64,000 nucleotides of DNA from a virus, in IMG/VR virus record IMGVR_UViG_3300006737_000017, positions 64,001-128,000 of that record; one strand, 5' to 3'. The notes below the pieces were generated by a model. It searched no databases. It saw only the letters and a program-made list of their open reading frames with translations, and had not been told where the DNA came from. Below, piece by piece: positions 8,503 through 63,214 of this stretch. The first letter of the stretch is position 1, and every line of letters starts with the position of its first letter. The position numbers and the translations under genes are program-made.

Positions 8503-8504
8503 AT

Positions 8505-20156: not shown

Positions 20157-20161
20157 AAGAT

Positions 20162-25587: not shown

Positions 25588-25637
25588 AATTAAAGAACAT
25601 GGATATTTATTAGTATAAAAAGAATAGAGGAAATACA

Positions 25638-26285: not shown

Positions 26286-26297
26286 GAGGAATAGAAA

Positions 26298-27407: not shown

Positions 27408-27424
27408 TAAGTACAAGCTATGAT

Positions 27425-29251: not shown

Positions 29252-29252
29252 A

Positions 29253-29690
29253 ATGAGTCATTGGTTATATAAAAATAAAATTCTAGAAGAAGCGCCTGAA
29301 GGCGTATTTGGTTTTGTTTATTTAATTACAAACGATAAAACTGGTAAAATGTATATTGGTAGAAAATACTTTGGCAAAACTAGAAGAGTTAAAAAGAAAG
29401 GAAGTAAAAGAAGAAAAGTCATAAGAAAGGATTCAGATTGGAGAACTTATATAGGCAGTTCCAAAACTTTACAAGAAAGCATTCAAAAAAATAAAAAACA
29501 ATTTAATTTCAAGATATTAGCTTTTGGTAAAACGAAAGGTCAAGTTAATTATATAGAAGAAAATTTACATCATAAATTTCATGTAGCAAACTCAAGCAAG
29601 TTCTATAATGATTGCATAGGACCAAGAAGATTTGCAAGAGTAAATCTAGACAAAGAAACTATAAACGTTATAAATAAAATTGCGTTATAA
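29253..29690 (+). CDS. GIY-YIG family nuclease-like protein
   Basis: FGFVYLITNDKTGKMYIGRK and WRTYIGSS. The MSHW start (29253) is preferred to 29235. Confidence 0.75.
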   Translation: MSHWLYKNKILEEAPEGVFGFVYLITNDKTGKMYIGRKYFGKTRRVKKKGSKRRKVIRKDSDWRTYIGSSKTLQESIQKNKKQFNFKILAFGKTKGQVNYIEENLHHKFHVANSSKFYNDCIGPRRFARVNLDKETINVINKIAL

Positions 29691-29720
29691 TTTGGATAAG
29701 TCCAAAAAATTTATTATATT
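29691..29720 (+). promoter_or_regulatory. early-type promoter motif, copy 8
   Basis: TTTGGATAAGTC-N11-TTATATT ending 7 nt before the primase ATG. Confidence 0.75.
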
Positions 29721-29727
29721 GTAGTAA

Positions 29728-33778: not shown

Positions 33779-33835
33779 CTCTATATTTATATATGAAACA
33801 TTAGATAGACTATTGTTGATATATCGGAGAAACTC

Positions 33836-35947: not shown

Positions 35948-35950
35948 AAA

Positions 35951-42851: not shown

Positions 42852-45800
42852 ATGGCTGGATCAGACGACTTTACAGGCCAAAATATTCAAGACACTTATC
42901 AAAGGGTTTTGCAATTATCATCGAGCGGAGCAGTTGCAGATGGTACAGGATCTTTAGTGCCACTGTTAAGAGTAACATCTTCATATGCTGTTTCATCTTC
43001 AGTCGAGATATTAAAGGAGCTATCTTCTTCATATGCAGAAACCGCAAGTTTTGCAAATAGCTTTGAAGTTACAGGACCACTTACAGCAAGCAATATAAGC
43101 GCAAGTGGTAGAGTAACTACATCAGATATTACATTGTTTAATACTAATGCTGGAAACCAAGAGATAGCTTGGTTCGGTGGAACAAATCAAGACGTTGAAA
43201 AAATCTATTGGGATGGTAACAATATAAATATTACTATACAAGACGAGGATATATTGCAAACTCATGTAGGAGGTGTAAACGTTAAAGGTACTTTAAGCGC
43301 AAGTACTGCAGTAAATACCGAAAAGATTATAACTACAAATAGTAATAATAACATAGAAATAAACCCAGCTGGTACAGGTGAAATAGATTTAGTAACTGGT
43401 AAAGTAAACATAAAAACTTCTGGGCCATTAGTACTACCTAAATTAAATTTATACAATAATGCTGGAACGTATTCTCAATCTATAAGTTGGACTCCCAGTT
43501 CAAACAAGCTTATTTCCATCCCAGACGAAGCTGGATCATTTGTAATAGAATCTCCTGGTAATGTAATATCAACAACTGCAATAAGCGCATCTGGTATTGT
43601 TTCTTCAAGTGGACTAAGATTACCAAACGGAGGAGCAATAACTTGGGGAGGTGTTGGTTACGCTTTATCAGTAACAAATAATAATCTGCAATTAGGATCA
43701 GGAGCTAACGTTGATGTAGAAGGTTATTTATCTGTCGGGGGAGCTATTACTTCATCAGCAGTATCATCTAGCGGTTTAATTGAAGCTAATAATATATTAT
43801 CTTCTGGCAGACTTTATTTTGGAGAATTTGGCGGATCTAACAAATTTTTTGGTATATCTGGAACTGGGTTAGCCCTTGAAAATACCTCATACCTTAAAAC
43901 GCCTTCTATAACTGCTTCCGGTGATATATCTACAAGTGCAGATCTTAAAGGTGGTAATTTATATTTAGGTCATAGTTCAAGAACCATAGCTAACACTGGT
44001 CACAGTAGTATAGGTAATCTTAATGTAAATGCTTCAAGAATTTTATATTTGCAACATGCGGAAGGATACAATTGTGCTATCGGAGGATATGAAGCACAAG
44101 AAACATTAATAGTTGAAGGTCAAAATGCTCAACAATCAGTTACGATTACAGCTAATAAAGGTCTTACAGTAAATGGAGCAATTACTTCATCTGGTAATAT
44201 AAGTTCAAGTGGTAATATCATAACGGAAAATGCACAAATCGCAACAAATTTATCAGTTGGCGGTTTTATTACTTCAAATATTGATAACACATTTGGAAAT
44301 ATATTTTCTGTAGCTACAACAAACCTAACAGCTTCAAGTAATATAAGTGCAAGTGGTAATGTATATGCTCATTCGGCATTTCTTCCGAATGGTGCTTCAA
44401 TTCAATTTGCTGATGAAACAGCTAATGAAGTAAGATTAAGAGGAGTTCAAGGAGCATTAGCAATAATGAGTGGTTCTAATACGGGTATAAGTATTAATCC
44501 AGGTGTAGGCCACATAACAGCATCAGGACATATAAGTTCAAGTGCAAATATTTATGGACAAGGGTATTATCTAAACGATGTTTCAATTTTAACTGAAAAT
44601 TCAAATATAGTTTATATAGGAGATACTGCAGCAGGTTCAGATTTTGATAGAGTAGAAGTATTACACCCATTAAGAACTCATCATCCAATAACAGCTTCAG
44701 CAGTTATTAGTCAAAGCGATATCGGCCATGCTACAAATATATTAGGTGGTGATTTACTTGTTTATGGTAAAATAAAATCTGTTGGTTCAGAACTTACGAT
44801 TATGTCTGGGTCGATAACAGCTTCTGCAAATATATCAACCTCTGCAGCTGTACAAGCTTTAACAGGTTCATTCGGTACTAATACTACAACTATAACAGAT
44901 AGAATAGAAACTACAGGCTTTATTAGTACAACAACTGGACTTCAAGCTCCGGGACTTACTGCATCTCATAAATTATTACAACTGGGATCAGCGGTAGATA
45001 CAAGACAAGAATTAGTAGTTTATGGAAAGATAGAACAAAAAGGATCAGGCCTAACTATTATGTCTGGTTCTATAACGGCTTCATCAGATATTTCAATGTC
45101 TGGAGACAGTAGTATTATAACTAGGACAGGATCTTTCAATCATATTATTACAGACGGAAATACTATTGAATTTAGAAATGCAGGGACTGGAGCAAAAGAA
45201 GGTTCGTTAAAGTTTGATTCAACAAATGGTTTACAAGTAAAAGATGAAAATGATGCAGAAGGTAAATTAAAAAGTAAATTTATAACTGCAACTGAAACTT
45301 TAATTTCTACGGGTAATGCAGAGTTTACAGGACCACTAACTGCATCAGGTGATATTAGTGCAAGTGGTACAATTAGAACTAGTGGAAACATCTTATCTAG
45401 TGGAGCAATAACAGCAAATTCAATAGCAGCACCAGGGTTCACAGCATCCCATAGATTATTACAATTAGGCTCAGAAGTTGATACAAAACAGGAATTAATA
45501 GTTTACGGAAAGATACAACAAAAAGGTTCTGGTTTAACGATTATGTCTGGGTCGATAACCGCTTCTGCTGACATTTCAATGTCTGGACCTGGTAGACAGA
45601 TTATTACAGAAACAGGATCTTTCAACCATATAATCACAGATGGTGATACTATTGAATTTAGAAATAAAGGAACTGGTGCTAAAATGGGATCGTTAAAATT
45701 TGATACAAGTAACGGTTTACAAGTTAAAGCAGCAGACGATTCTTCTGGTAAAACAAAAATAGGAGTTTTAGATGTAGATGATCAGTTCGTAGTTTCCGGA

Positions 45801-47558
45801 GATCAGGCAAGATTCGATGCACCAGTCACAGCTTCTATAATAAGTTGTAGTACAGAAGCAACAATGGGTGCTATGTCTGTAAGAGGAGCACTTGAAAGTT
45901 TTAATACTATAGAATCTTCAAAATTTATTACATCTCAACAAGGTCTAAGAGCACCGGGCTTTACTGCATCAGCAAAATTATTGCAATTAGGAGCAGCAGA
46001 TAATGAAAGACAAGAATTAATTGTTTTTGGTAAATTGCAAATAAAAGGATCTGATATTACTATGATGTCCGGTTCTATTACGGCATCTTCTGATATAAGT
46101 ACAAGCGCTGGTGTAGTAGCTTTATCTGGTTCATTCGGAACTGGAACAACTACAATCACCGATAGAATACAAACATCTGGTGATATACAATCCTCTGGGG
46201 AAATTACTGGAACTGTTGTAAATGGTACAAAGGGTGTATTCTCTGATGACATGGTTGTTGCAAATAGAATACAAACGAACCTAGAATTCAGAGCTCCAGG
46301 CTTTACTGCATCAAATAAATTATTACAACTGGGAGCACCAGACAATGAAAGACAAGAATTAATCATTCATGGTATAATTAGACAAAAGGGTTCTGAACTT
46401 ACAATAATGTCAGGATCTATTACAGCTTCTGGTGATATAAGCTCAAGTGCAACAATTGCAGGATTAACAGGTTCGTTCGGAACTGGTACTACAACGATAA
46501 CAGATTACATACATACAACCGGAACTGTATCTGGTAGTGGTATTCTAACTTCTGGAAATGTAACAGCATTAGGAGGCATTGCAACCGATGGAGAAGTAGA
46601 AGCAGTTACAGTGTCAGCTGGTTCTGGAGGAGTTAGTTCAAAGGGTACAATTACTACTCAAGGTCTAATAAACGCAGGTACTGGTTTAAGAGCTCCCGGC
46701 TTTACAGCTTCACATAAACTATTACAAATAGGTTCAGCGGTAGATACAAAACAAGAATTAATTGTTCACGGAAAATTACAAGTAAGAGGTTCAGACTTTA
46801 CAATTATGTCTGGGTCAATAACAGCTTCAGGTGATATTTCTGCATCGGGTAACGTAATGGCTGGTGGAGGAGGAACAGGATCCTTTGATCATATAATAAC
46901 TTCACAAAATACTATTGAATTTAGAAACCCTGGAACTAAATCACCAGTTGGGTTTGTAAGCTTTGATGCAACAAATGGTATGCAACCAATGGATGCTTCA
47001 AGAGCAAATCTTCCAAGATTAGCAGATAAATTTGCAACAGCAAGAACAATAGATGGTGTAAGCTTTGACGGATCTGCAAATATAACTACTAATCAGTATA
47101 TGGGTACAACCCAATTTCAAAAGGTTTTAATGAATGAATTCAATTATCAAACTAACGATTATGTAAGTTTATTAATTGGACCTAAATTCATATATCTAAC
47201 AAATCTTAATGAAGAAAAAGCAACTACTATTTATGCTACTGTTCAAATACCAATTGGAAGAACCTTAACAGCAGTAGCTCCTTTTGGTTCAACTGCTCCA
47301 GCTAACTCTGTTGCTAAAAATTATGTAACCTTAAGAGGGATTAATATTGATGGAACTTATAACTCAGACCCAATAACGTTTATTAGAAAATTGAAAACCG
47401 TTGTTCCTGAGCTTACTTTGCTAGGCATGGAATATCCAGTAGATGCAACAACGGCTAAAAAACCAAAGCATGAATCCACTAGAAATAATTATTTGATGAT
47501 AGGAGTAGTATTACAACCAGGAGCTAACTTTAGAGGATTGGTACTAACTTACTCTTAA
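42852..47558 (+). CDS. very long repetitive fibre-like protein
   Basis: 1568 aa with many ITASGDISAS units and five APGxTASxxLLQ(L/I)G...TIMSGSITAS modules. Confidence 0.75.
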   Translation: MAGSDDFTGQNIQDTYQRVLQLSSSGAVADGTGSLVPLLRVTSSYAVSSSVEILKELSSSYAETASFANSFEVTGPLTASNISASGRVTTSDITLFNTNAGNQEIAWFGGTNQDVEKIYWDGNNINITIQDEDILQTHVGGVNVKGTLSASTAVNTEKIITTNSNNNIEINPAGTGEIDLVTGKVNIKTSGPLVLPKLNLYNNAGTYSQSISWTPSSNKLISIPDEAGSFVIESPGNVISTTAISASGIVSSSGLRLPNGGAITWGGVGYALSVTNNNLQLGSGANVDVEGYLSVGGAITSSAVSSSGLIEANNILSSGRLYFGEFGGSNKFFGISGTGLALENTSYLKTPSITASGDISTSADLKGGNLYLGHSSRTIANTGHSSIGNLNVNASRILYLQHAEGYNCAIGGYEAQETLIVEGQNAQQSVTITANKGLTVNGAITSSGNISSSGNIITENAQIATNLSVGGFITSNIDNTFGNIFSVATTNLTASSNISASGNVYAHSAFLPNGASIQFADETANEVRLRGVQGALAIMSGSNTGISINPGVGHITASGHISSSANIYGQGYYLNDVSILTENSNIVYIGDTAAGSDFDRVEVLHPLRTHHPITASAVISQSDIGHATNILGGDLLVYGKIKSVGSELTIMSGSITASANISTSAAVQALTGSFGTNTTTITDRIETTGFISTTTGLQAPGLTASHKLLQLGSAVDTRQELVVYGKIEQKGSGLTIMSGSITASSDISMSGDSSIITRTGSFNHIITDGNTIEFRNAGTGAKEGSLKFDSTNGLQVKDENDAEGKLKSKFITATETLISTGNAEFTGPLTASGDISASGTIRTSGNILSSGAITANSIAAPGFTASHRLLQLGSEVDTKQELIVYGKIQQKGSGLTIMSGSITASADISMSGPGRQIITETGSFNHIITDGDTIEFRNKGTGAKMGSLKFDTSNGLQVKAADDSSGKTKIGVLDVDDQFVVSGDQARFDAPVTASIISCSTEATMGAMSVRGALESFNTIESSKFITSQQGLRAPGFTASAKLLQLGAADNERQELIVFGKLQIKGSDITMMSGSITASSDISTSAGVVALSGSFGTGTTTITDRIQTSGDIQSSGEITGTVVNGTKGVFSDDMVVANRIQTNLEFRAPGFTASNKLLQLGAPDNERQELIIHGIIRQKGSELTIMSGSITASGDISSSATIAGLTGSFGTGTTTITDYIHTTGTVSGSGILTSGNVTALGGIATDGEVEAVTVSAGSGGVSSKGTITTQGLINAGTGLRAPGFTASHKLLQIGSAVDTKQELIVHGKLQVRGSDFTIMSGSITASGDISASGNVMAGGGGTGSFDHIITSQNTIEFRNPGTKSPVGFVSFDATNGMQPMDASRANLPRLADKFATARTIDGVSFDGSANITTNQYMGTTQFQKVLMNEFNYQTNDYVSLLIGPKFIYLTNLNEEKATTIYATVQIPIGRTLTAVAPFGSTAPANSVAKNYVTLRGINIDGTYNSDPITFIRKLKTVVPELTLLGMEYPVDATTAKKPKHESTRNNYLMIGVVLQPGANFRGLVLTYS

Positions 47559-47578: not shown

Positions 47579-48283
47579 ATGATAAAATTAAAAGACATAA
47601 TAACAGAAGGAGTCTATGATCCAGGAATATTCAAAGCAGTATTTACTGCAGGTGGTCCTGGTAGTGGAAAGTCTTATACTGCTTCAACATTGTTTGGCAT
47701 GCCTGAAAAAATGCCCTATGTTTCTGCAAAAGGATTAAAGGGTGTAAATTCAGATTCGGCATTTGAAACTTATTTAGATAAAGCCGGTTTATCTCAAGAT
47801 ATAAAATCCTTGAATGCAGACGAATATGCAAAAGCAATGGAATTAAGAAATCAAGCAAAACGTGTAACTGTAAAAAGAATGCACAGTTATATAAATGGAA
47901 AACTTGGTATGTTAATAGATGGAACGGGAAAAAATTATGATAAAATTGCAAATATGAAAAAGCAATTGCAATTACACGGTTACGATTGTTATATGATATT
48001 TGTAAATACTACTTTAGAAGTAGCAATAGAAAGAAATGATAAAAGACCAAGAAAAGTTCCTTTAGATATATTGAAAAAATCTTGGAAAGATGTACAAAAC
48101 AATTTAGGCAGATTCCAAACGCTATTTGGTGCAAGTCAAATATTAATAGTTGACAATTCAACTTACAAAGAGTTTTCATCAGTGGTTAAAAAAGCAGCTT
48201 CAAGTTTTGTAAACAAACCTATCAAAAATCACATTGCTAAAAAATGGATAAAAAAAGAATTAGAACTAAAGAAGAAAATATGA
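47579..48283 (+). CDS. zeta-toxin/AAA_33-like P-loop kinase
   Basis: AGGPGSGKS, VNSD, LIDGTG, MIFVNTTLEVAIERNDKRPR. Confidence 0.75.
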   Translation: MIKLKDIITEGVYDPGIFKAVFTAGGPGSGKSYTASTLFGMPEKMPYVSAKGLKGVNSDSAFETYLDKAGLSQDIKSLNADEYAKAMELRNQAKRVTVKRMHSYINGKLGMLIDGTGKNYDKIANMKKQLQLHGYDCYMIFVNTTLEVAIERNDKRPRKVPLDILKKSWKDVQNNLGRFQTLFGASQILIVDNSTYKEFSSVVKKAASSFVNKPIKNHIAKKWIKKELELKKKI

Positions 48284-49449
48284 ATTTAGGTCAATGGCTA
48301 GCAGATAATATATTAGAAGATGAAATAGTAGATTTCGTTTCAACTGGTAAAGTTAATTCTTTACTAGAAGTAAATTCTATAGGTTCTGCTGAAGTAGATG
48401 ATGGGCCAACAACTTTTTACAAGTCATATAAAGAATATGAAAAATTTACAAAAGCTCAAGCTGAAAAGATGGGAATGAAAGTTATAAATTTTGTAATTGG
48501 TGAAAACCCATTAGATACTAGTTATACAAATTCTAATATGCCAACATATTTTCCAGCTGGTATACCGGGAGAATCAACTCCAGCAGGTGGTAAAGATTAC
48601 AAATTTACTAAAGCGTATTCTTTATGGAGAAAGCGTATAAAGGACATAGCATTATTGGTTGGCTTTGAATTTTTAGATCACTTAGAGAAAAAAGAAATAC
48701 CTTCGAAAACTCCAAGTAACGATAAGATAGATGAACCAGTAAAACCTTCAAGCAATCCTCTAACAGAGGCTGTAAAGAACGAGCATGCATTCAAAGCTAT
48801 ATTCTTAGCTGGAGGTCCAGGATCTGGTAAATCAACAGTAATAAATAAATTATTTGGAATACCACCAAAGAATAAAGTACAATCGGGCCTAACTACAGCA
48901 GGGTTAAAGATAGTAAATTCAGATTCAGCTTATGAATATCTAAAAGCAAAAAATAAAATACCTCCATCGGAAAACGATATGACTGATGCTCAAAGATCAA
49001 TGGGCGGCAAGCTAATGGCTAAGTCTGTAAAGATTGCAAAGAAACAATTGGAAAATTATTTAGATGGAAAGCTTGGTATTATAATAGATGGAACTGGAGC
49101 TTCGTCAAATGCTCTTGGAAAAAAGAAAGCAAGAATAGAAGATTTAGGATACGATTGTTATATGATATTTGTATCTACTTCTTTAGAAACTGCTTTAGAA
49201 AGAAATAGAAATAGAAAAGAAAGAACATTGCTAGATAAGGTAGTTGAAAGATCTTGGCAAGCGGTTATGGATAATTTGAAAACTTATAAATCTATGTTTG
49301 GTTCAAATTTTGCAGAAGTATCAACAGAAGGAAAGGAATCAGACAAATTACCACCTGGAGTTAAATCTGGTATAAATAAGTTTTTAAGAAAACCTCCAAA
49401 AAATAAAGTAGCTAAAAAATGGCTTAAACATGCAAGGGAGTTGTTATAA
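48280..49449 (+). CDS. unknown N-terminal domain fused to a second zeta-toxin-like P-loop kinase
   Basis: AGGPGSGKS, VNSD, IIDGTG, MIFVSTSLETALERNRNR. The MNLGQ start (ATGA overlap) is preferred. Confidence 0.75.
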   Translation: MNLGQWLADNILEDEIVDFVSTGKVNSLLEVNSIGSAEVDDGPTTFYKSYKEYEKFTKAQAEKMGMKVINFVIGENPLDTSYTNSNMPTYFPAGIPGESTPAGGKDYKFTKAYSLWRKRIKDIALLVGFEFLDHLEKKEIPSKTPSNDKIDEPVKPSSNPLTEAVKNEHAFKAIFLAGGPGSGKSTVINKLFGIPPKNKVQSGLTTAGLKIVNSDSAYEYLKAKNKIPPSENDMTDAQRSMGGKLMAKSVKIAKKQLENYLDGKLGIIIDGTGASSNALGKKKARIEDLGYDCYMIFVSTSLETALERNRNRKERTLLDKVVERSWQAVMDNLKTYKSMFGSNFAEVSTEGKESDKLPPGVKSGINKFLRKPPKNKVAKKWLKHARELL

Positions 49450-54169: not shown

Positions 54170-55030
54170 ATGAAATATAAAAAATTGAAACACTCTAAAT
54201 TCAAAAATACAGGTGTATTGTTTGAACTACTGGTAAGACAAATTACTAGTGACACTTTGAACGGTGTAAAGAAATCTCCTGCTATAAAAATATTAGAAAC
54301 GCATTTTAATTCTAAAACTAATATTAGAAAAGAAATACAAATGTATCATACTTTGCAAAATCAAAAGTTTAATACAGAAGATAAAGCTAATAGATTTATA
54401 GATGCAGTTATAAGAGAATATGCTAAAATTAATAGAACAGCATTAAGAAAAGAGAAATATAATTTGATTAAAGAAATAAAGCTAAATTATAATCTAGAAG
54501 CTTTTTTCAAAACTAAAATTTCAAATTATAAAATGAATGCATCTATTGCTAAAACTTTAGATAAAGATTATGTAAACCCAGCAGATAAGGTAAGATCAAG
54601 ATATACTATCATAGAATCTATAACTGGTAAATCTTCAGAAGTTGGAAAACAAAAAGCAACTGTCTTAAAAGAATTTTCACAAGGCGATAAAGATCTAAGG
54701 ATATTATCTTATAATATATTGCTAGAAAAGTTCAATGCTAAATATGGAAAACTTAGTATTTCGCAAAAGAGATTGTTAAAAGAATATATTAATAATGTTT
54801 CAAATACTGAGAGGTTAAAGAAATATGCAGACTCTGAAGTTATAAAGCTTGCAAATAGCTTAAGTAAATGTGAAACAAGGGTTAATGATAAAATTGTAAA
54901 AATAAAAATAGCTGAAGTAAAAACGCAATTGTTAAAAATACAAGGCGAAAAGAAAATAAAAGATTTACATCTAGTTTCTTTGCTTCGTTCTTATGATTTA
55001 ATAAAGGAGTTGAAAAATGTCTCTAAATAA
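54170..55030 (+). CDS. hypothetical protein in head module
   Basis: 286-aa basic helical ORF; GATATTTATA at 54143. Confidence 0.7.
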   Translation: MKYKKLKHSKFKNTGVLFELLVRQITSDTLNGVKKSPAIKILETHFNSKTNIRKEIQMYHTLQNQKFNTEDKANRFIDAVIREYAKINRTALRKEKYNLIKEIKLNYNLEAFFKTKISNYKMNASIAKTLDKDYVNPADKVRSRYTIIESITGKSSEVGKQKATVLKEFSQGDKDLRILSYNILLEKFNAKYGKLSISQKRLLKEYINNVSNTERLKKYADSEVIKLANSLSKCETRVNDKIVKIKIAEVKTQLLKIQGEKKIKDLHLVSLLRSYDLIKELKNVSK

Positions 55031-55463
55031 AAAATTGAAAGAATTAGAAGATAAATTCAAAGAGGAAGAAATAGAAGAAGCAAACACAACTGCAGATGCA
55101 GGAGGTGAATACAATACAAAATATGCTTTTGGCAAAAAGAAAAAGAAAGACTTAGAAGTTGGCGGTTATAAGAAAGTTAAAGAGTCTAAGTTTATGACTT
55201 TAGCAAAAGCAACTTTGATGAATGAAGTATCTTATAAAGAATATAAGAAAGACGAATCAGCAACTTCAAAACAAAAAGTAAATAGAGCTATAAAAGAAAT
55301 TAATAGTAAGCTATATAAAATTGAACATATAGTCAACCAGAATATAAAATTAAAATCTGAATCGGGAGTAGATGAATCTAAATATTGGAAATCTACTAGA
55401 AGTAATCTTGCAAAGATATCAGAGAAAATGAATAGAATATCAAATAGGTTAAGAAGATTTTAA
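55017..55463 (+). CDS. hypothetical protein in head module
   Basis: 148 aa, AAGGAG upstream. Confidence 0.7.
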   Translation: MSLNKKLKELEDKFKEEEIEEANTTADAGGEYNTKYAFGKKKKKDLEVGGYKKVKESKFMTLAKATLMNEVSYKEYKKDESATSKQKVNRAIKEINSKLYKIEHIVNQNIKLKSESGVDESKYWKSTRSNLAKISEKMNRISNRLRRF

Positions 55464-55600
55464 TGAAAAAGAAAAAGACTATATTAAAAGAAAAACTAGA
55501 AAAAGAAGATCTAGCAAGAATACGAAAAATAATTCGTTCTGAAATTGCTGAACTGTTTTTTGATTTATATAGAAAAAGAACCGTTTGGAGCAAGCAATGA
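55463..55600 (+). CDS. 45-aa hypothetical protein
   Basis: Below cutoff. MKKKKTILKEKLEKEDLARIRKIIRSEIAELFFDLYRKRTVWSKQ*, overlapping both neighbours (TAATG and ATGA). Confidence 0.6.
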   Translation: MKKKKTILKEKLEKEDLARIRKIIRSEIAELFFDLYRKRTVWSKQ

Positions 55601-56229
55601 AAAATATTTTAATAGATACTATACCATTTAATGTAAGCCCAGAACTGATCAAAGAATCAGAAGAAAAAAATAACGGAAGAGTTATTGTTACTGGTGTTCT
55701 ACAAAGAGCTGGAGCTAAAAATCAAAATGGTAGAATTTATCCAAAAGAAATTTTAGTTAGAGAAGCTGAAAAATATGCAAAGACTGAAATAGCAGAAAGA
55801 AGAGCTTTAGGCGAATTAGATCACCCAGATTCTTCTGTTGTTAATTTGCAAAATGCTTCACACAATATAAATAAGATATGGTGGAAAGACAACGATTTAA
55901 TGGGACAAGTAGAAGTACTTGGAACTCCTTCTGGTAATATACTAAAGGAATTGTTAAAAGCTAATATAAAATTGGGAATATCTTCTAGAGGTATGGGATC
56001 CGTTAAACAATTATCCGAAGATGGCACATTAGAAGTACAAGGCGATTTTGAATTAGTTTGTTGGGATTTTGTAAGTAACCCTTCAACTCATGGAGCTTTT
56101 ATGCATCCAGTAAACGAATCTGTTACAAAAACTATTGTAAATAATAAATACGAAAAAGTAAACTCTATAATAAACGAAATACTTTGCGACTTAACATGCA
56201 AATGTTCTTTACCTAGAAGGAGAAAATAA
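55597..56229 (+). CDS. gp21: prohead core protease
   Basis: NQNGRIYP, ALGELDHP, LGISSRGMGS, WDFVSNPS; ATG at 55597. Confidence 0.95.
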   Translation: MKNILIDTIPFNVSPELIKESEEKNNGRVIVTGVLQRAGAKNQNGRIYPKEILVREAEKYAKTEIAERRALGELDHPDSSVVNLQNASHNINKIWWKDNDLMGQVEVLGTPSGNILKELLKANIKLGISSRGMGSVKQLSEDGTLEVQGDFELVCWDFVSNPSTHGAFMHPVNESVTKTIVNNKYEKVNSIINEILCDLTCKCSLPRRRK

Positions 56230-56951
56230 TGAAATTAAAAAGAATACTAAAAGAAAATGAAGAAGCTCAAGCTAAGTCTTTAACAAGAGAACAGAAAAGA
56301 GCTATTATCGATTCAGTTTCTAAATTCAATGAATACGGTAAATCTGTATACAGAGAATCAGATATTAAAGAAATGGTTAAAACAATAAAAGAGCTTTCAG
56401 CAAATGCTTCTGAATTAGCTGTAAACGAAGCTGGTGATTGGTTTGATGGTATCTCCGTAAAAAGAGATATGAAAGAAGTAAACGCTTCGGTTAGTTTATT
56501 TGAAAAGACTGCAAATGAAATAGCAACACTTCAACAAAGACTAGAATCTGTATTTGAAGATGTAGGTCATAAGCTTGGTAAATATTACGAAATCAAAGAA
56601 GAACTAGATAAGATAGACGATAAAGAAGCTGAAACTGATTATGACGACCTCGAAGATAAAGACATAGATAACGACGGAGACACAGATGATTCAGATGAGT
56701 ACTTACATCACAAACTAGGAGTTGTAGCAAAGAAAACTGAAGGTATATCTTTAAGCAAATTGAAAAATGAAGCTGCTCCTAAAATGAGAAAGAATCCAGA
56801 AGCTGAAAAAATTGACAAAATATATAAAGCAGCATATCTTCTAAGAAAAGGTGGAGCTGGTAATAGATATGGAAAAGAATTTGAATCTGCTAAAAAGAAA
56901 GCACTTAAAGCTTTAGCAGATATGTATAAATATTCAAAGATAGGAGTGTAA
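56229..56951 (+). CDS. putative prohead core/internal protein with EF-hand-like loop
   Basis: Starts MKLKRILKE; contains DIDNDGDTDDSDE (DxDxDG). Confidence 0.6.
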   Translation: MKLKRILKENEEAQAKSLTREQKRAIIDSVSKFNEYGKSVYRESDIKEMVKTIKELSANASELAVNEAGDWFDGISVKRDMKEVNASVSLFEKTANEIATLQQRLESVFEDVGHKLGKYYEIKEELDKIDDKEAETDYDDLEDKDIDNDGDTDDSDEYLHHKLGVVAKKTEGISLSKLKNEAAPKMRKNPEAEKIDKIYKAAYLLRKGGAGNRYGKEFESAKKKALKALADMYKYSKIGV

Positions 56952-56953
56952 CA

Positions 56954-57910
56954 ATGAATTCTGAAACAATTAGAAAAATAATTAAAGAAGAATTACAAGC
57001 TCTTCTACTAACAGAAAAATTTCAATCTAAAAAGCTTACAAATTTATACTCTTTACTTTCAGCTGAAAGATGGTCTGGAGGAAAAAAGATATTTGATAAA
57101 ATAGCTAGAGCTAAATCTTTTGATTGGGCAAATACACCGGACTCTGCAGTTAAGAAAGCAACATCTGGTAATGCAGATGCTAATACCTTAAATATATTTG
57201 TAGTAACTAAGGCAAAGCAAAATACTAGAGATAGAAGCTACGGTTATAATACTGTTAGGCCTGGTTTACTTGGTATGACTTTAGGAAAGAAAGTATTAGG
57301 TGGTAATGGTAACATAGTTTCTAAAAGAGGCGATAGAGCTGGAGAAGATTATACTAAGAAAGGTATTCATAACTTCAAAGCTTTCAATGAATTTTCAGAC
57401 GAAGTTTATCAAATAAACATAGTTGGCATTCCAAGCTCAGCTGATGTTCAAAAATCAAGAGCAGAAGCAAAAGATGGTGCAGCTGCTTTAATGACAGCAA
57501 GAGATGTACTAAGAAAGAATAAACAAAGATATCAAGATGCTTTAACTATGAAAGCTGGAGAAGGCGGTTGGAAATCAGCAAGAGATATGGTAAAAAGAGC
57601 AACAGATATATTTACAAATGCAATTGGTAATCACACTAAAATGTTATCTAATGGTATGTACATGAATACATGGAATAACGAATATGGTAATGCTTCAAAT
57701 TTATATAGTAGCATAATGGATAAATTCAAAAGATTCCAAGAGCAAAACAAATCTGCTATGAAATATAAAGCTGATGGAAGAGAAATGAAATATCATACAG
57801 ATAGAATGGCTGGAACATTAAAAGACATGCAAGATTTATTCAAAGATTTTGCTAAAAGAATGAAACAATTGGAAAATGCTAAACCAGAAAAAATCAAAGC
57901 AGGTTGGTAA
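56954..57910 (+). CDS. hypothetical protein, possibly internal head protein
   Basis: 318 aa basic; N-terminal IRKIIKEELQALLLTE. Confidence 0.65.
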   Translation: MNSETIRKIIKEELQALLLTEKFQSKKLTNLYSLLSAERWSGGKKIFDKIARAKSFDWANTPDSAVKKATSGNADANTLNIFVVTKAKQNTRDRSYGYNTVRPGLLGMTLGKKVLGGNGNIVSKRGDRAGEDYTKKGIHNFKAFNEFSDEVYQINIVGIPSSADVQKSRAEAKDGAAALMTARDVLRKNKQRYQDALTMKAGEGGWKSARDMVKRATDIFTNAIGNHTKMLSNGMYMNTWNNEYGNASNLYSSIMDKFKRFQEQNKSAMKYKADGREMKYHTDRMAGTLKDMQDLFKDFAKRMKQLENAKPEKIKAGW

Positions 57911-57952
57911 TAAAAAATAATCATCGCTCTCAATAAAAAAGTTGGCTTATTC

Positions 57953-57982
57953 TTTGGATAAGTCAATTTTTTTTGTTATATT
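57953..57982 (+). promoter_or_regulatory. early-type promoter motif, copy 9 (upstream of bS21)
   Basis: TTTGGATAAGTC-N11-TTATATT. Confidence 0.75.
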
Positions 57983-58020
57983 AGTACTAATAATATTAAT
58001 TCACTAAAAACAATAATACT

Positions 58021-58356
58021 ATGGGTAAATTTATTCCTAAAGACAGGTCTGGTAAGCCTATTAAAAATTACCGCAAAAGACACGAATTTATAATGCCGGG
58101 AGTTCCATCTGGAGTCAAAGTTCCAGGGACATCGTCTGGAGATGTAGAAAAAGCTCTTAAAATATTTAAGAGACAAATGAAAGACAGCGGAACATTAGAA
58201 GAATTAAGAGATAGAAGATATTTCATTAAGGAATCTAAGAAAAGAGTTATACAAAAAGAAAAAGCAGTAAGAGCTCAACAAAAGCATGACAGATGGAGAA
58301 AAGCTCATGATAAAAATCACATCTGGACTGCAATAATAGACGGCAAGGCGCAATAA
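58021..58356 (+). CDS. rpsU: phage-encoded ribosomal protein bS21 with terminal extensions
   Basis: VKV...DVEKALKIFKRQMKDSGTLEELRDRRYFIKESKKR...KAVR matches the bS21 core. Confidence 0.85.
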   Translation: MGKFIPKDRSGKPIKNYRKRHEFIMPGVPSGVKVPGTSSGDVEKALKIFKRQMKDSGTLEELRDRRYFIKESKKRVIQKEKAVRAQQKHDRWRKAHDKNHIWTAIIDGKAQ

Positions 58357-58374
58357 TAACCATTTAAGGCATCT

Positions 58375-58421
58375 AATTTAGGTAATATATAAAAATATTG
58401 CCTAAATTGTTGCGGTTTTTT
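58375..58421 (+). terminator. hairpin/possible terminator after bS21
   Basis: AATTTAGGTAATAT (58375-58388) pairs with ATATTGCCTAAATT (58395-58408); T run shortly after. Confidence 0.45.
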
Positions 58422-58572
58422 TAGTCTTTTCATATATTCCTATATATTTATATTCACAAACGATATACAAAAATGCGTTATCTATTCTAATATAATGCAG
58501 TATATGAAAAACAATCGATATTAAGGTTCATAATAACCTTACTTCCAAATTACATATTAAAGGAGAGAAATA

Positions 58573-59508
58573 ATGTCAAAAGACTTATTGAAAGAAGCTA
58601 TTGCTGACGCGAAGGCTGTTAGAGAAACTGCAATTGCAAACGCAAAATTAGCTTTAGAAGAAGCTTTTACTCCAAAACTACAATCTATGCTATCTGCAAA
58701 GATACAGGAAGAAGAAGAATTAGAGGAAACTGAATTAGCTGACGAAGATACTGCACCGAATGCAGAGGAAATGGCAATGGCTGATGAAACAACTGATTTA
58801 GCTGCTGAAAATGATGAAACAGAAGAAGCAGCAGAACCTGCAGAAGAGATGGCTTATGGTGAAGGTGAAGAAGTAGAAGAAGGTGAAGACACTGAGGAAG
58901 GTATCAAAGAAGACGAAGAAGTTGAAGAAACTGAAGACGTTGAAGAAGATGCTGAACTAGAAGAAATCATCAAAGAATTAGAGGAAGAGGATGACGAAGT
59001 ATCAGAAGAAGAAACTATGGACGAAGCTGAAGATGTTGAAGAAGCTGAAGAAGTAGAAGAAGACGAAGATATGGACGAAAGCCTAGACCTTGACGAAGTA
59101 ATTAAATCATTACAAGAAGAAGAAATGGAAGAAGAAGAAGTTGAAGAAGTTGATGAACTTGAAGAAGCATATAAGACTATTAGATCTTTGAAAGCTACAA
59201 TCAATGAAGTTAATTTGCTTAATGCAAAACTTTTATTTTCTAACAAATTATTCAGAAGTAACGACTTAAATGAATCGCAAAAAATGAAAGTAATCGAAAC
59301 TTTCGATAGAGCAGGTTCTGTAAGAGAAGTTAAATTAGTTTATACTACTTTAGCTGAATCATTAACAGCATATACTCCATCAAGAAAGAAAAGAGTAACT
59401 GAAGGCTTTGCATCAAAAACTTCTAAATCGACTGCACCTAAGAAAGGTGTTATAGTTGAAAGTAATGACTTTGCTAATAGAATGAAAAAATTAGCTGGTC
59501 TATTGTAA
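58573..59508 (+). CDS. prohead scaffold protein, gp22-like
   Basis: Extremely Glu-rich centre, directly upstream of the capsid gene, ends RMKKLAGLL. Confidence 0.8.
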   Translation: MSKDLLKEAIADAKAVRETAIANAKLALEEAFTPKLQSMLSAKIQEEEELEETELADEDTAPNAEEMAMADETTDLAAENDETEEAAEPAEEMAYGEGEEVEEGEDTEEGIKEDEEVEETEDVEEDAELEEIIKELEEEDDEVSEEETMDEAEDVEEAEEVEEDEDMDESLDLDEVIKSLQEEEMEEEEVEEVDELEEAYKTIRSLKATINEVNLLNAKLLFSNKLFRSNDLNESQKMKVIETFDRAGSVREVKLVYTTLAESLTAYTPSRKKRVTEGFASKTSKSTAPKKGVIVESNDFANRMKKLAGLL

Positions 59509-59547
59509 AACGAATTAATAATTTTAGAAATTAATAGGAGACAAAAA

Positions 59548-61164
59548 ATGTCAAATCAAATTTCAAACTTACTAAATGAAAGCTCTAATCAGTTTCGTGC
59601 ACAAAGAAACGAGACTAAAGCTTTAGTTAGTAAATGGAACTCAACTGGTCTTCTTGAAGGTATCGATAAAGAATACGATAAGCATAATACTGCAATCCTT
59701 TTAGAAAACCAAGCGAAACAATTAATTTCCGAAGCAAATGCTACTTCTACTACTTCAGCTGAAGAATGGAACGGCGTTGCTCTTCCACTAGTTAGAAGAA
59801 TCTTCGGTGAATTAAGCGCTAAAGAATTTGTTAGCGTACAACCAATGAACTTACCATCAGGACTAGTATTCTGGTTAGATTTCAAATATGGATCTGATAT
59901 CCAGGGCGATGCTAATGGTAAGAAATTTACAGATGGAACTGATATCTTAGGTGATACTTCATCTTCATCTACACCAACAGGTGGTATTTACGGTAGAGGT
60001 AAAGCTGGATATACAGCTGGACAAGGTTCTGCTACTGCTGTAACTGCTGCTCACGCAACTGCATCTTGGGAAGATGTTGGATATGACGGTGCACTTTCTG
60101 CATCTGCTGCTGCAGGTACAATTATGAAAGTAACTTTAGCATCAACTAACTATCCAACAGATTTCGATTCTGATATGGTTAAGTCTGCTGCTATCTCTTG
60201 TTCAGATGGTGGTAAATTCGATGTAGCTGATAACTTATCTGCTTACAACTTTACTGAAGGAACTAACTCATACTTCTTTACTTCAAAAGATACTGCTGGT
60301 GGAGCTGCTCCAACTGCAATCGGAAAGATCTTCTTTACGAAAGCTCCAGCTGATAACTTATCAAGAGGTGACTTCGAAGCTAATGACGCTGAGCCAACAA
60401 CTAATGATTTAGGTATTCCTCAAATCGATGTTGCTTTAAGACAAGAAGCTTTAGTTGCTAAGACTAGAAAGTTAAAAGTTGTATGGACTCCAGAATTTGC
60501 TCAAGATTTGAATGCTTATCATTCAATTGATGCAGAGGCTGAGTTAACTTCAATGTTATCTGAATACATCTCAATGGAAATCGATATGGAAATCTTAGAG
60601 ATGGTTGATTCAGCTGCATTACATGAAGATACTTGGATTGCTGAATTAGGTAAAACAGCTACTGCTGGTTCTGATGTATTAGCTGATGCTGGAAATGCTG
60701 CTGCTTATACTCAAGCTACTTGGTTCCAAACGTTAGGTACTAAATTACAGAAAGTTTCTAATAAGATTCACGCTTCAACAATGAGAGGAGGAGCAAACTT
60801 CGTAGTATGTTCTCCAGATGTTGCAACAATCTTAGAATCTTTAACTGGGTTTGGGGCTGATACTGATGGTCTTAAAAATCAATTTGCTATGGGTGTTCAA
60901 AAGATCGGTGCTATCAATAACAGATACACTGTATACAAGAACCCTTACTGGCAAGATAACGTTTTATTAATGGGCTTTAGAGGATCTCAATTCCTTGAAA
61001 CTGGAGCAGTTTATGCACCGTATATTCCATTAATTATGACGCCATTGGTTTATGATCCTACTAACTTTACGCCAAGAAAAGGTGTAATGACTAGGTATGC
61101 TAAGAAAGTAGTAAGACCTGAATTCTACGGTAAGATCAACATCGGTCAATTGAATACTATATAA
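59548..61164 (+). CDS. gp23: major capsid protein
   Basis: AILLENQ, LPLVRR, VQPMNLPSGLVF, AKTRKLK, AQDLNAYHSIDAEAEL, YAPYIPL and GVMTRYA. Confidence 0.97.
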   Translation: MSNQISNLLNESSNQFRAQRNETKALVSKWNSTGLLEGIDKEYDKHNTAILLENQAKQLISEANATSTTSAEEWNGVALPLVRRIFGELSAKEFVSVQPMNLPSGLVFWLDFKYGSDIQGDANGKKFTDGTDILGDTSSSSTPTGGIYGRGKAGYTAGQGSATAVTAAHATASWEDVGYDGALSASAAAGTIMKVTLASTNYPTDFDSDMVKSAAISCSDGGKFDVADNLSAYNFTEGTNSYFFTSKDTAGGAAPTAIGKIFFTKAPADNLSRGDFEANDAEPTTNDLGIPQIDVALRQEALVAKTRKLKVVWTPEFAQDLNAYHSIDAEAELTSMLSEYISMEIDMEILEMVDSAALHEDTWIAELGKTATAGSDVLADAGNAAAYTQATWFQTLGTKLQKVSNKIHASTMRGGANFVVCSPDVATILESLTGFGADTDGLKNQFAMGVQKIGAINNRYTVYKNPYWQDNVLLMGFRGSQFLETGAVYAPYIPLIMTPLVYDPTNFTPRKGVMTRYAKKVVRPEFYGKINIGQLNTI

Positions 61165-61211
61165 TTAAATAATTAATTTTCTTATATATTAATAATTGAA
61201 TATTGTTAATT

Positions 61212-61240
61212 AGGGCCCCCTTAATTGGGGGCTCTTTTTT
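61212..61240 (+). terminator. intrinsic terminator after the capsid gene
   Basis: AGGGCCCCC-TTAATT-GGGGGCTCT followed by a T run. Confidence 0.9.
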
Positions 61241-61291
61241 GTGTTATCTTGACTTACTTGATATTTATACTAAATAGAATAGGAGAAAGTT

Positions 61292-61969
61292 ATGTCAACT
61301 CATTTCGCAAAAGCAGCAGGAGCAAAGAATAATAAGAAAGGTTATAGATTCTTATTATCTTTGAACGAAGAACAAAAGTTAACCAAACCTTATATACTTG
61401 ATAATGATATATCTATTATAACTGGTAAAGCTGGTTCTGGTAAAACTTTACTTGCATGTCAAATTGCATTGCAAGGTGTACTTGAAAAAAGATATAAAAA
61501 AATTATCATAACTAGACCAACGGTTTCAAAAGAGGATCTTGGTTTTTTACCTGGTGGTATAGAAGATAAGATGGCACCATGGGTATCTCCAATATATGGA
61601 AACATGTATCAGCTATTAAGAAGAGAAAGAGTAGATCAAATGATAAGGGCAGATCAAATAGAAATAGTTCCAGTCTCTTACATGAGAGGAAGAACTTTCT
61701 TGGATTCTGTTATTATTATAGATGAATGTCAAAACTTAGATGATACGCAAACTCTTATGATTTTACAAAGATTAGGAAGAGATTCGAAAATGATATTCTG
61801 TGGTGACACAGACCAAATCGATATGAAAAATTCTACAGATAGCGGTTTAAGATTTTTACAATCTATAAAGAATGTAGAAGGCTTTTATGTAAAAGAATTA
61901 GAAACAAATCATAGACACCCAATTCTTGATAATATACTACCAATCTATGACAAATATTTCAAAAGTTAA
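61292..61969 (+). CDS. phoH: PhoH family protein
   Basis: GKAGSGKT, ITRP, LGFLPG, YMRGRTF, IIDECQN, GDTDQID and RHP. Confidence 0.95.
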   Translation: MSTHFAKAAGAKNNKKGYRFLLSLNEEQKLTKPYILDNDISIITGKAGSGKTLLACQIALQGVLEKRYKKIIITRPTVSKEDLGFLPGGIEDKMAPWVSPIYGNMYQLLRRERVDQMIRADQIEIVPVSYMRGRTFLDSVIIIDECQNLDDTQTLMILQRLGRDSKMIFCGDTDQIDMKNSTDSGLRFLQSIKNVEGFYVKELETNHRHPILDNILPIYDKYFKS

Positions 61970-62044
61970 GTCTTCAGCTTGATAATTATATACACAACTG
62001 CACATTGACTGCGGAACATGATATTTATATAAAAGGAGCAATAT

Positions 62045-63214
62045 ATGGCAAAAGATATTTCAATATGGCCTGGGTCTGGTTCTTTCTCTGCAAGCTATGC
62101 TGCAAGTGAATCTCCAACACCTTTCGCACTATACGACACAGATAACGAATTTACAGCTTCTGCTGATAATGTAGCTGTTTGGTGTGCAAGAAGACTTGGG
62201 TATCCTATAGTAGATATTGAATTGCAAGATAAAAACTTTTGGGCTTGTCATGAAGAAGCTGTAACAGAATATTCTGCACAAGTAAATAGATTTAATATAA
62301 GAGAAAACCTATTAAATTTACAAGGAGCTTCAACTGGTTCATCATTTACTGGTAAACAAATAAAGGGTGGATTAGATGCTACAATACAAATAGCAAAGCA
62401 ATATGGTTCAGAAGCTGGTTCTGGTGGATCAATAAATTGGTACAGCGGTTCTATATCTGTAACTTCTGGTTCACAAGTTTACGATTTAACTGATTCTAGT
62501 GTTACTACATATGAATCTGGTACACCAGGTACAAATGTTATAGAAGTTAAAAGAATATTTCACGAAGGAACACCAGCAATAAATAGATTGTTTGATCCTT
62601 ACGTTGGAACTGGAGCTGGTACATCTCATATGATGCAAGCTTTTGGTTGGGGAGGTTATTCTCCTGCAATCAATTATCTAGTTATGCCCTTATATGATGA
62701 TATGCTAAGAATGCAAGAAATAGAATTCAACGATCAGGTAAGAAAATCTGCACACTCATTTGAGTTGATAAATAACAAATTAAGGATATTTCCAAAACCA
62801 ACAAGCGATTATACTTTCTATTTTCAATATATAAAAACCTCAGATAGAAAAGGTAGTGTATCGGGGGCTGTTGTATCAGACTTTTCAAATCTACAATATG
62901 ACAATATACAATACAAGTTTATTAATGATCCAGGTAAACAATGGATTAAAAAATACACTCTTGCTTTAGTAAAAGAATTGCTAGGATCAATCAGAGGAAA
63001 ATACTCTACAGTACCAATCCCTGGATCTGAGACAACTTTAGATGGAGATGCTTTAAGAGCAGAAGGTGCAGCTGAAAAGGAAACGCTAATTGCACAATTA
63101 AGAGAAGATTTACAAGCTGCTTCAAGAAGGAACTCAATGGAGAGAAACAAAGAGGAAGCAGAATTTCAACAAGAACTAATTAACAAAGTACCACTAGGTA
63201 TTTATATAGGGTAA
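62045..63214 (+). CDS. neck protein, gp13-like
   Basis: WCARRLGYPIVDIEL and WIKKYTLALVKELLGSIRGKY...TLDG. Confidence 0.8.
   Translation: MAKDISIWPGSGSFSASYAASESPTPFALYDTDNEFTASADNVAVWCARRLGYPIVDIELQDKNFWACHEEAVTEYSAQVNRFNIRENLLNLQGASTGSSFTGKQIKGGLDATIQIAKQYGSEAGSGGSINWYSGSISVTSGSQVYDLTDSSVTTYESGTPGTNVIEVKRIFHEGTPAINRLFDPYVGTGAGTSHMMQAFGWGGYSPAINYLVMPLYDDMLRMQEIEFNDQVRKSAHSFELINNKLRIFPKPTSDYTFYFQYIKTSDRKGSVSGAVVSDFSNLQYDNIQYKFINDPGKQWIKKYTLALVKELLGSIRGKYSTVPIPGSETTLDGDALRAEGAAEKETLIAQLREDLQAASRRNSMERNKEEAEFQQELINKVPLGIYIG

Follow-up and report, generated by a model that had tools for sequence, protein, structure and literature searches.

A marine T4-like myovirus recovered as IMG/VR record IMGVR_UViG_3300006737_000017 carries, among its head genes, an unusual copy of the ribosomal protein bS21 that may open the ribosomes of its host to Shine-Dalgarno (SD) sequences. 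The stretch analyzed here, referred to as the window, is 64,000 nucleotides (nt) long and comprises bases 64001-128000 of the 138,299-bp linear viral record, with a guanine-plus-cytosine (GC) content of 32%; positions are those of the window unless ascribed to the record, and the bS21 cassette, the early-type promoter motifs, the tRNA, and the tmRNA described below lie on the + strand, which holds 163 of the 165 genes called in the record. The gene in question (58021-58356) encodes a 111-amino-acid (aa) long form of bS21 that has Arg in place of the Tyr (Tyr54) of flavobacterial bS21, and it stands behind a predicted promoter of its own and a leader lacking any SD. The reading we put forward, tentatively, is that this Tyr54-less long form enters the 30S subunits of a Bacteroidia host that is otherwise blind to SD sequences, frees the anti-SD, and switches ribosomes toward SD-led phage messages. 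An earlier note, made from the sequence alone, had described the locus as a candidate ribosome-reprogramming switch, an interpretation that the analysis below partly supports.

The bS21 gene and its transcription cassette

The assignment of the open reading frame (ORF) at 58021-58356 to bS21 stands. Its translation outscores the curated cut-offs of both Pfam PF01165, Ribosomal_S21 (E 1.3e-12; 47.6 bits against 27, residues 40-86), and TIGR00030 (44.7 bits against 28.95), and it matches PHROG 21469, "ribosomal protein S21," at 2.7e-07. The nearest solved chains are the bS21 chains 9i5v_9 and 7jil_z. An AlphaFold model with a mean predicted local distance difference test score (pLDDT) of 78.8 places helices at residues 39-56, 58-66, and 71-100, as expected for bS21; a Foldseek search of this model against PDB gave no match at E 0.001. 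The S21 core (residues 40-88) is preceded by a basic N-terminal extension of about 30 aa and followed by a long basic helix that ends in a conserved tail, WTAIIDGKA. Neither the N-extension nor the C-terminal tail has a counterpart in cellular bS21.

Forty-two metagenomic proteins (89-123 aa) match the phage bS21 at E <=0.001. An alignment of the window's bS21 with 23 of them shows R9, R20, F23, G27, V32-P35 (VKVP), and W102 to be invariant down to 44% identity. Because all 24 homologues conserve residues 1-35 at the protein level, a start at Met25, which would yield an S21 of normal length, was ruled out. Among 1.84 billion representatives, a profile search returns 36 proteins at E <=1e-10 and 2965 at <=0.001, the latter being ordinary S21. 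In a tblastn search of 50,697 phage records the only match to the phage bS21 is the Microcystis phage Mel-JY01, and a pattern scan of the bS21 alignment over 185,579 species genomes yielded 98 pattern matches with no relative among them.

The earlier note stated that the phage sequence KAVRAQ stands where flavobacterial bS21 has a Tyr, and it called for an alignment with host-type bS21. Set against the Flavobacterium johnsoniae chain 7jil_z, KAVRAQ falls opposite KAAYIQ, which puts Arg84 at the Tyr54 position. Comparison sequences of bS21 were taken from five bacterial genomes (three Flavobacteriia, one Ignavibacteriaceae, one Rhodothermales), and all three of the Flavobacteriia have Tyr in this column, in agreement with the note, together with an extended SD ahead of rpsU (upstream sites GAAGGGAGGG and GAAAGGAGGTGAT in two Flavobacteriaceae genomes). 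Among 24 aligned members of the phage family the column holds Arg in 20, Ala in 4, and Tyr in none. The C-terminal part of the phage protein, with 12 Lys plus Arg, has an isoelectric point of 10.75, in a small sample where Flavobacteriia (n = 3) range from 9.5 to 10.2 and the Ignavibacteriaceae and Rhodothermales proteins from 11.8 to 11.9. Jha et al. describe Tyr54 and a C-terminal part of lower basicity as signatures of Bacteroidetes bS21 (PMC7797042). The phage bS21 shows neither of these Bacteroidia-type signatures, nor the extended SD upstream of its gene, and it has Arg where the phage bS21 clades of Chen et al. 2022 (PMC9723584) have an aromatic residue 54.

In gene order, a prohead protease (55597-56229) and two unnamed genes are followed by bS21, an acidic 311-aa gene (58573-59508), and the Gp23 capsid gene (59548-61164). 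The position of bS21 reported in the earlier note, between the protease region and a scaffold gene, is seen here; the 311-aa product is scaffold-like in position and composition, and the scaffold label is to that extent putative. This placement beside capsid, protease, portal, and terminase genes is also that of the phage bS21 clades of Chen et al.

The claim that bS21 has its own early-type promoter is well borne out at the level of motif. Positions 57953-57982 are a perfect copy (0 mismatches, 19 of 19 specified positions) of TTTGGATAAGTC-N11-TTATATT, a motif with 23 copies in the genome at <=3 mismatches, 23 of them on the + strand and 0 on the - strand, the spacer always 11 nt; 20 shuffles gave a mean of 0.3 copies and a maximum of 1. 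The 12-nt upstream half of the motif is unusually conserved, and its recognition may involve host sigma factor alone or a phage activator in addition. Copies precede the DNA polymerase A-like, UvdE, Hc1-gp32-RecA, exonuclease-helicase, DNA polymerase B, NUDIX, and MoxR ATPase genes, as well as a primase and a Mre11/Rad50-like gene that form an island inside the late region. Since it heads replication genes, the motif would represent a pre-late class, and both its function as a promoter and its timing are predicted from this distribution. In the relative G013, the bS21 promoter is in the same local class as the promoter of a gene whose leader matches the DNA polymerase B leader of the present record. 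A scan for the sigma-70 consensus, uninformative in AT-rich DNA, found 31 sites against 30.6 in shuffles. A second motif, ATATTTATA, precedes virion genes (31 copies on the + strand, 26 of them intergenic, and 9 on the - strand) and is taken as late-type; one match, at 58444-58452, lies before gene 58573, whose SD, AAAGGAG (58559-58565), pairs with the anti-SD at -9.1 kcal/mol.

Hairpins flank the bS21 gene and its promoter. Upstream, an A-tract, a 17-bp hairpin, and a T-run (T8) at 57936-57972 resemble a terminator (-15 kcal/mol, z -5.66, 0 of 200 shuffles as good), and the terminator scan lists them. The 3' arm of this hairpin is at the same time the upstream (-35) half of the bS21 promoter, and it covaries: 9 of its 17 pairs are kept through both-sided changes in eight aligned relatives. 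With a stem-loop, a U-run, and conservation all present, the element is probably a terminator-like insulator after the upstream head genes. Downstream, a hairpin at 58374-58409 (-14.8 kcal/mol, z -3.96), followed 6 nt later by T7 (58416-58422), is absent from the terminator scan list; it is the weaker candidate of the two and possibly marks the end of the cassette (58374-58422). The leader itself (57983-58020) is A-rich and weakly structured, folding together with the first codons no better than shuffles do (z +1.26). Its predicted anti-SD pairing of +1.6 kcal/mol agrees with the earlier description of an SD-less leader. The leader has A at -3, -6, -12, and -13, which are four positive initiation determinants in F. 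johnsoniae (PMC6847099). In nine of nine long-form relatives shown, a hairpin, a T-run, TTATATT, and an SD-less "ACTAAAA" leader stand before bS21. In marine metatranscriptomes (four runs from one study), contigs identical to the window span 58582-59070 and parts of the capsid gene, and bS21 is covered by only one 163-nt contig of a relative (58170-58332, run X2); such contigs give no level, ends, or timing, RNA libraries can contain DNA, and no conclusion about expression is drawn from them.

Other members of the early-type promoter class show additional features. Eight of the 23 carry the late-type motif within the -10 region (TTATATTTATATA; 665-694, 940-969, 3382-3411, 6078-6107, and four more in the record) and are possibly active in the early as well as the late phase. 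No late motif is embedded in the bS21 promoter of the window, in contrast to that of the closest relative, L031. At eight of the 23 (8 of 21 in the relative G011), the ATG comes 6-7 nt past the -10 element, so the corresponding mRNAs, among them those for primase, UvdE, and NUDIX, are predicted to be leaderless. The one for the primase and the Mre11/Rad50-like gene (29691-29720, ATG 7 nt past -10) lies in the late region, and the others are at record positions 3230, 7153, 15478, 23924, 32318, 54973, and 55944. A gene for a SegE-type GIY-YIG homing endonuclease (29253-29690) adjoins the primase island. Several SD-less early leaders have (C)ACTAC(T) directly before the ATG (985-1000, 3440-3455, 4290-4301, 4727-4738), a feature that the earlier note had also remarked on. 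The palindrome GACAAATTGTC occurs paired just upstream of some early promoters (623-654, 3318-3371, and also upstream of the window), with TTGTTAATAAC boxes nearby; it has nine strand-matches (<=1 mismatch) against 1.5 expected, and has the appearance of an operator through which one subclass of the promoters would be regulated.

The early-type promoters have the layout TTG-N20-TATATT(T)A/G in common with those of the Flavobacterium phage vB_FspM_immuto (GTTGC-N-TATATTTAG, 20 intergenic copies) and of Mel-JY01 (CTTGCATAnGTC-N-GTATATTTG, for example at 60071, 60475, 143696, and 150694 of record PP395634). The -10 part of the Mel-JY01 promoters fits TAnnTTTG, which we take to be the Bacteroidetes -7 consensus, and the true host range of Mel-JY01 may deserve a second look.

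Shine-Dalgarno use in the phage and its relatives

Gene calls came from a simple program of our own, based on ORFs and codon usage, that sets each start, uncurated, at the first ATG. A core SD, defined as AGGAG, GGAGG, GAGGT, or AAGGA at -20 to -4, precedes 49 of 164 phage genes, an 8-fold enrichment over the coding background of 3.8% seen at control positions inside genes. Over all 164 genes G peaks at 40% at position -10, within a sharp peak from -12 to -7. As a control, the same measure gives 5/261 (2%) for Bacteroidota chromosomal loci and 26/170 (15%) for Gammaproteobacteria loci. Predicted pairing with the anti-SD reaches -11.4 kcal/mol for the strongest phage gene. The gene lists of the earlier note prove accurate: the eight genes given as SD-less all pair at -0.5 kcal/mol or weaker, and the 17 given as SD-led all pair at -6.8 to -11.2 kcal/mol. 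Of the genes from 55017 to 62045, all except bS21 pair at -5.6 kcal/mol or stronger.

The earlier note had set SD-less early genes against SD-led later ones and asked for SD strength to be compared by promoter class. In a breakdown by transcription unit, covering 162 genes, one part of that split stands. A core SD precedes 1 of 23 first genes after an early promoter (1 of 15 where the leader exceeds 10 nt), compared with 11 of 22 first genes after a late motif (Fisher p 6e-4). The single early first cistron with a core SD is gene 11007, which does combine an early promoter (10939-10968) with AGGAG, as had been noticed. The closest relative, G011, repeats the contrast, with 1/21 early against 6/17 late (p 0.03). 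The other part does not stand, as internal genes show no early-versus-late difference (15/46 in early units, 21/70 in late units, p 0.84), and the gp32, RecA, dUTPase, and GroEL genes are SD-led. The split is between promoter-proximal early cistrons and everything else, not between early and late.

Comparison with relatives was based on the capsid. The phage has a T4-like gene set (Peptidase_S77 prohead protease, Gp23 capsid, T4-type portal and terminase, gp25, sheath, and tube), and its capsid protein is 52% identical to that of Mel-JY01, 51% to that of immuto, and 36% to that of Rhodothermus phage RM378. The combination of S21, a two-piece transfer-messenger RNA (tmRNA), and 32% GC had raised the possibility of a pelagimyophage; with the capsid nearest to those of immuto and Mel-JY01 and only 28-29% identical to those of cyanophage-type T4-likes, that identity was ruled out. 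The sample comprised three genomes and, from at least 585 IMG/VR loci of this capsid clade, the best 80. Of these 83, 54 were kept, each having at least 8 genes and, in addition, a visible S21 or 3 kb of sequence upstream of the capsid gene; 29 were dropped.

High SD use tracks the long form as a whole. In loci with long-form bS21 (n = 10), 100 of 184 genes (54%, range 0.42-0.77) have an SD; in those with a short S21 (n = 20), 103 of 390 (26%, range 0.07-0.60); and in those without S21 (n = 24), 44 of 390 (11%, range 0-0.32), with none in the head module of immuto. The ranges for long form and for no S21 do not overlap (Mann-Whitney p 6e-6). Whole records of the long-form relatives G011, G012, and G013 have SD fractions of 0.29, 0.32, and 0.37. 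The complete genome of immuto, whose Flavobacterium host is proven, has no S21, and an SD precedes 5 of its 212 genes, under its 10% background; Mel-JY01, which has S21, shows 23 of 235 against a background of 1.7%. As to the Tyr54 column, none of the 21 capsid-clade loci with an SD fraction of at least 0.25 has an aromatic residue there, and only two loci of the clade have Tyr (SD fractions 0.23 and 0.18), with the proviso that the alignment of this column is uncertain for short-form S21. Three huge phages with a Tyr-type bS21 (KAIYIQ or KAIYVQ) show SD in 0/45, 1/47, and 11/69 genes.

Work on F. johnsoniae suggests how a variant bS21 could matter. When bS21 carries Y54A, is truncated at the C-terminus, or is depleted, SD-led translation rises 3- to 5-fold in vitro (PMC9976891), and an extended SD must match fully (below -13 kcal/mol) to serve replete ribosomes, whereas mismatches are tolerated by those deficient in bS21 (PMC13000453). 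In F. johnsoniae the anti-SD is sequestered by bS21, bS18, and bS6, and in a Bacteroidia host it would be hidden in a pocket built of these proteins. Ordinary SD sites at canonical distance on a third of the genes of a phage would therefore call for ribosomes with a free anti-SD. In the phage, the variant bS21 gene would form an insulated cassette with transcription of its own, driven by a pre-late promoter of host-sigma type, of the same class as those of the replication genes. Given the SD-less, A-rich leader, unmodified host ribosomes could translate the mRNA, and so make phage bS21, at once. The product would keep the ribosome-binding S21 core, without the Tyr54 that stacks on A1534, and with a basic, conventional C-helix and conserved extensions; the anti-SD of 30S subunits that take it up would stay exposed. 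Phage messages with an ordinary SD of 5-7 nt, those of the abundant virion genes included, would then be read preferentially.

Host, rival explanations, and other genes of the record

Indirect clues make a host within Bacteroidia probable. A Por_Secre_tail domain, the sorting domain of the type IX secretion system (T9SS), ends a protein of about 1000 aa in three of the five records searched (the present one, G011, and G012; the remaining two have completeness values of 60% and 9%). In the present record, whose CheckV completeness is 80%, this protein has 1082 aa (record positions 43791-47039; L007:4292-7540), with no other domain found. The domain points to a host in Bacteroidota or the wider Fibrobacteres-Chlorobi-Bacteroidetes (FCB) group, as does a DUF4494 protein of the phage; the nearest cultured phages by capsid, which infect Flavobacterium and Rhodothermus, count for an FCB host. 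The GC content of the phage, 32%, equals that of the sampled Flavobacteriaceae genome (0.32), the two sampled FCB genomes from outside Bacteroidia being at 0.58 and 0.53. The tRNA-Arg(TCT) gene mentioned in the earlier note was found (4639-4713; ARAGORN, Rfam 72.2 bits), and compared with ten bacterial genomes it is most similar to that of a Flavobacteriaceae genome (89% over 57 nt). A profile of the phage S21 family scores Flavobacteriaceae bS21 at 1e-12, versus 1e-10 and 9e-10 for the Ignavibacteriaceae and Rhodothermales genomes.

Several observations weigh against the proposed switch. The SD counts depend on gene starts set at the first ATG, and a third of the internal genes in early units are already SD-led, being transcribed alongside bS21 and not after it. 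Presence of S21 changes only three times on the capsid tree (48 rows), giving two to three independent pairs, so that no phylogenetically fair test is possible; the long-form loci are essentially one clade, near-duplicates included (L039/L040, L066/L067); and the association between bS21 and SD use may reflect shared ancestry or shared hosts. Loss of the Tyr is insufficient: SD fractions are only 0.07-0.11 in short-type loci whose residue at this position is R, L, or K (L098, L072, L053). The Tyr-type phage LR756501 still has 16% SD. As to the host, T9SS is also found outside Bacteroidia within the FCB group, and the tRNA-Arg signal is weak, with a Rhodothermales genome at 86% and several phyla at 80-86%. 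The recorded host of Mel-JY01, which has bS21 and uses SD moderately, is Microcystis. The tmRNA of the window, which the earlier note also listed, is permuted (8474-8768; tag GTQVEMAMAA; ARAGORN; Rfam RF04321 at 8517-8677, 66.9 bits against a cut-off of 47). This form is unexpected for a Bacteroidota host, having been described from Alphaproteobacteria, some Gammaproteobacteria, and Cyanobacteria (PMC9004378). Arg, finally, is the normal residue in the Tyr54 column for the Ignavibacteriaceae and Rhodothermales genomes, where it goes with a more basic C-terminal part; the host could therefore be outside Bacteroidia, and the phage bS21 may simply copy the protein of such a host.

Two alternatives draw on these points. 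The first keeps a Bacteroidia host and takes the unlocking away from bS21: SD-led messages would use bS21-free ribosomes or another phage factor, while the phage bS21 might sustain 30S assembly late in infection or, as Chen et al. proposed, select phage mRNA, here through its N-terminal helix and extension. It accords with a content of about 0.8 bS21 per ribosome in wild-type F. johnsoniae (PMC13000453), with the failure of Tyr loss to predict SD use among short-type loci, with the tracking of high SD use by a long form whose N-extension and C-tail are conserved, and with the argument of Chen et al. for specificity through the N-terminal helix (PMC9723584). We nevertheless hold it to be somewhat unlikely. 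None of the 24 assessable loci without bS21 lies above an SD fraction of 0.32, and the immuto head module has no SD at all, so a bS21-independent route gives no SD-rich genomes in this clade; nor was any other candidate factor found, though most genes of the phage are without a Pfam match.

The second alternative, which we judge unlikely, is that the host reads SD sequences natively, being a T9SS-bearing or other organism outside Bacteroidia with an Arg-type bS21. The phage copy would then be a supplement or competitor with nothing to unlock, and the SD-less early leaders would reflect leaderless or fast-start design only. The Arg and very basic C-terminal part of Ignavibacteriaceae and Rhodothermales bS21 speak for this explanation, along with the permuted tmRNA, the inclusion in the capsid clade of a Rhodothermus phage and of a phage recorded on Microcystis, and the way the association of bS21 with SD use follows clades. 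It fits poorly with SD use in the candidate hosts themselves: the two FCB genomes from outside Bacteroidia, with crude start calls, have SD at 4/85 and 8/74 genes against a 5% background, far under the 30% of the phage. The Flavobacteriaceae genome stands at 1/69, and no sampled candidate host type matches the SD use of the phage. The preference of the phage-family profile for Flavobacteriaceae bS21 and the match in GC content also argue against it, and it is hard to see why, in an SD-using host, the SD should be missing from 14 of 15 leadered early first cistrons. If the host does read SD sequences natively, the locus is an ordinary phage bS21.

It is improbable that the extended S21-like protein is non-ribosomal, for instance a basic nucleic-acid-binding head or internal protein. 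Such a role would explain its place among prohead genes (the position between protease and capsid is conserved here and in Mel-JY01), the extension and tail absent from cellular bS21, and the Foldseek result; against it stand the early-type promoter in place of a late motif, the conserved hairpin that fences bS21 off from the late head genes, the well-conserved S21 core scoring above curated cut-offs, and the entry of another phage's bS21 into E. coli ribosomes (PMC6375957). That the AGGAG motifs are composition or some signal other than initiation is very improbable: GGA and GAG do arise by chance in AT-rich, A-rich leaders with uncurated gene starts, but the 8-fold enrichment, the sharp G peak, and the separation of Bacteroidota from Gammaproteobacteria loci by the same measure all oppose it.

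The record contains further genes unusual enough to mention. GroES and GroEL are encoded at record positions 19794-21567. GroEL was considered as a host marker and rejected, with 51-57% identity to Bacteroidota, Rhodothermota, Ignavibacteriota, and Pseudomonadota alike and no host signal; in a FastTree phylogeny (79 rows) the phage GroEL sits on a branch of 0.72 and is deviant in composition. A cluster of about 15 kb for sugar-nucleotide and glycosyltransferase functions, unusual in a phage, lies at about 24589-40370 of the record (L006:4890-19850, L007:47-871) and includes GT1, GT2, FdtA, DegT, RmlD-like, C-methyltransferase, epimerase, and UDP-glucose dehydrogenase genes. Two neighbouring Zeta_toxin/AAA_33 kinase-like genes (47579-49449) follow a late motif that almost touches the ATG.

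Comparison with known systems

The bS21 locus resembles, in its layout, the morons or insulated auxiliary cassettes of late operons: one non-structural gene, separately promoted and bordered by terminator-like hairpins, stands among late structural genes. It differs in two respects: the promoter is the phage's own replication-class motif, and its -35 part overlaps the upstream hairpin.

The S21 of Pelagibacter phage HTVC008M and other pelagimyophages (PMC6375957, PMC7029224) likewise comes from marine T4-like myoviruses, whose GC content is about 33%; a two-piece tmRNA is present in some of their relatives (PMC9004378). HTVC008M, whose bS21 enters E. coli ribosomes (PMC6375957), belongs to another capsid lineage; its bS21 is 54% identical to that of its host, and no question of anti-SD masking arises there.

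A close precedent in gene neighbourhood is that of Chen et al. 2022, who described bS21-bearing myoviruses of freshwater Bacteroidetes with bS21 beside capsid, protease, portal, and terminase genes and proposed that the phage protein substitutes into host ribosomes, favouring phage mRNA (PMC9723584). The earlier note was thus right that phage bS21 genes near structural genes had been reported, and the two cases share bS21 by the head genes, proposed Bacteroidetes hosts, and proposed ribosome substitution. All 61 of the phage bS21 of Chen et al. keep Tyr54 or another aromatic residue and were concluded to block the anti-SD in the same way as the host's own bS21; the present family has Arg or Ala in 24 of 24 members, and its 111-aa representative has conserved N- and C-terminal extensions. 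Here the gene lies on the same strand as its neighbours and has a replication-class promoter, while theirs is on the reverse strand, according to the abstract, and is co-expressed with late genes. Neither "RBS" nor "ribosome binding" appears as a term in that paper. A tblastn search of 50,697 phage records with a Flavobacteriaceae bS21 found five records, none from a cultured Bacteroidia phage, which left no bS21 phage of known host for comparison.

A full-text literature search, with most subscription journals outside its scope, found no paper proposing anti-SD release by a phage bS21, and searches on Mel-JY01 and on SD use in late genes of Flavobacterium phages found nothing. Phage bS21 near head genes is already known; a Tyr-less bS21 that would free the anti-SD for SD-led phage genes did not appear in the literature searched. 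In McNutt et al. 2023, phage bS21 comes up, speculatively, only as a replacement that redirects translation, not in connection with SD-led phage genes (PMC9976891), and in Naeem et al. 2026 phage are nowhere mentioned (PMC13000453).

If the proposal is true, a virus would be reprogramming start-site selection by swapping one ribosomal protein, which would explain how the conserved anti-SD of SD-blind Bacteroidia can be exploited. The locus and its relatives give phage bS21 a concrete, falsifiable role, and a fitting test bed already exists in the F. johnsoniae strains, SD and SD-less GFP reporters, purified ribosomes, and cryo-electron microscopy of the Fredrick and Ortega laboratories. A close parallel in mechanism is the autoregulation of rpsU in F. 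johnsoniae (PMC7797042, PMC9976891, PMC13000453), which involves the same protein family and where bS21 that is missing, truncated, or Y54A leads to a freed anti-SD and more SD-led activity. There, the host exerts feedback on one gene, through an extended SD below -13 kcal/mol; here, the phage would supply a natural Tyr-less variant, made from an SD-less mRNA, and so open dozens of ordinary SD sites.

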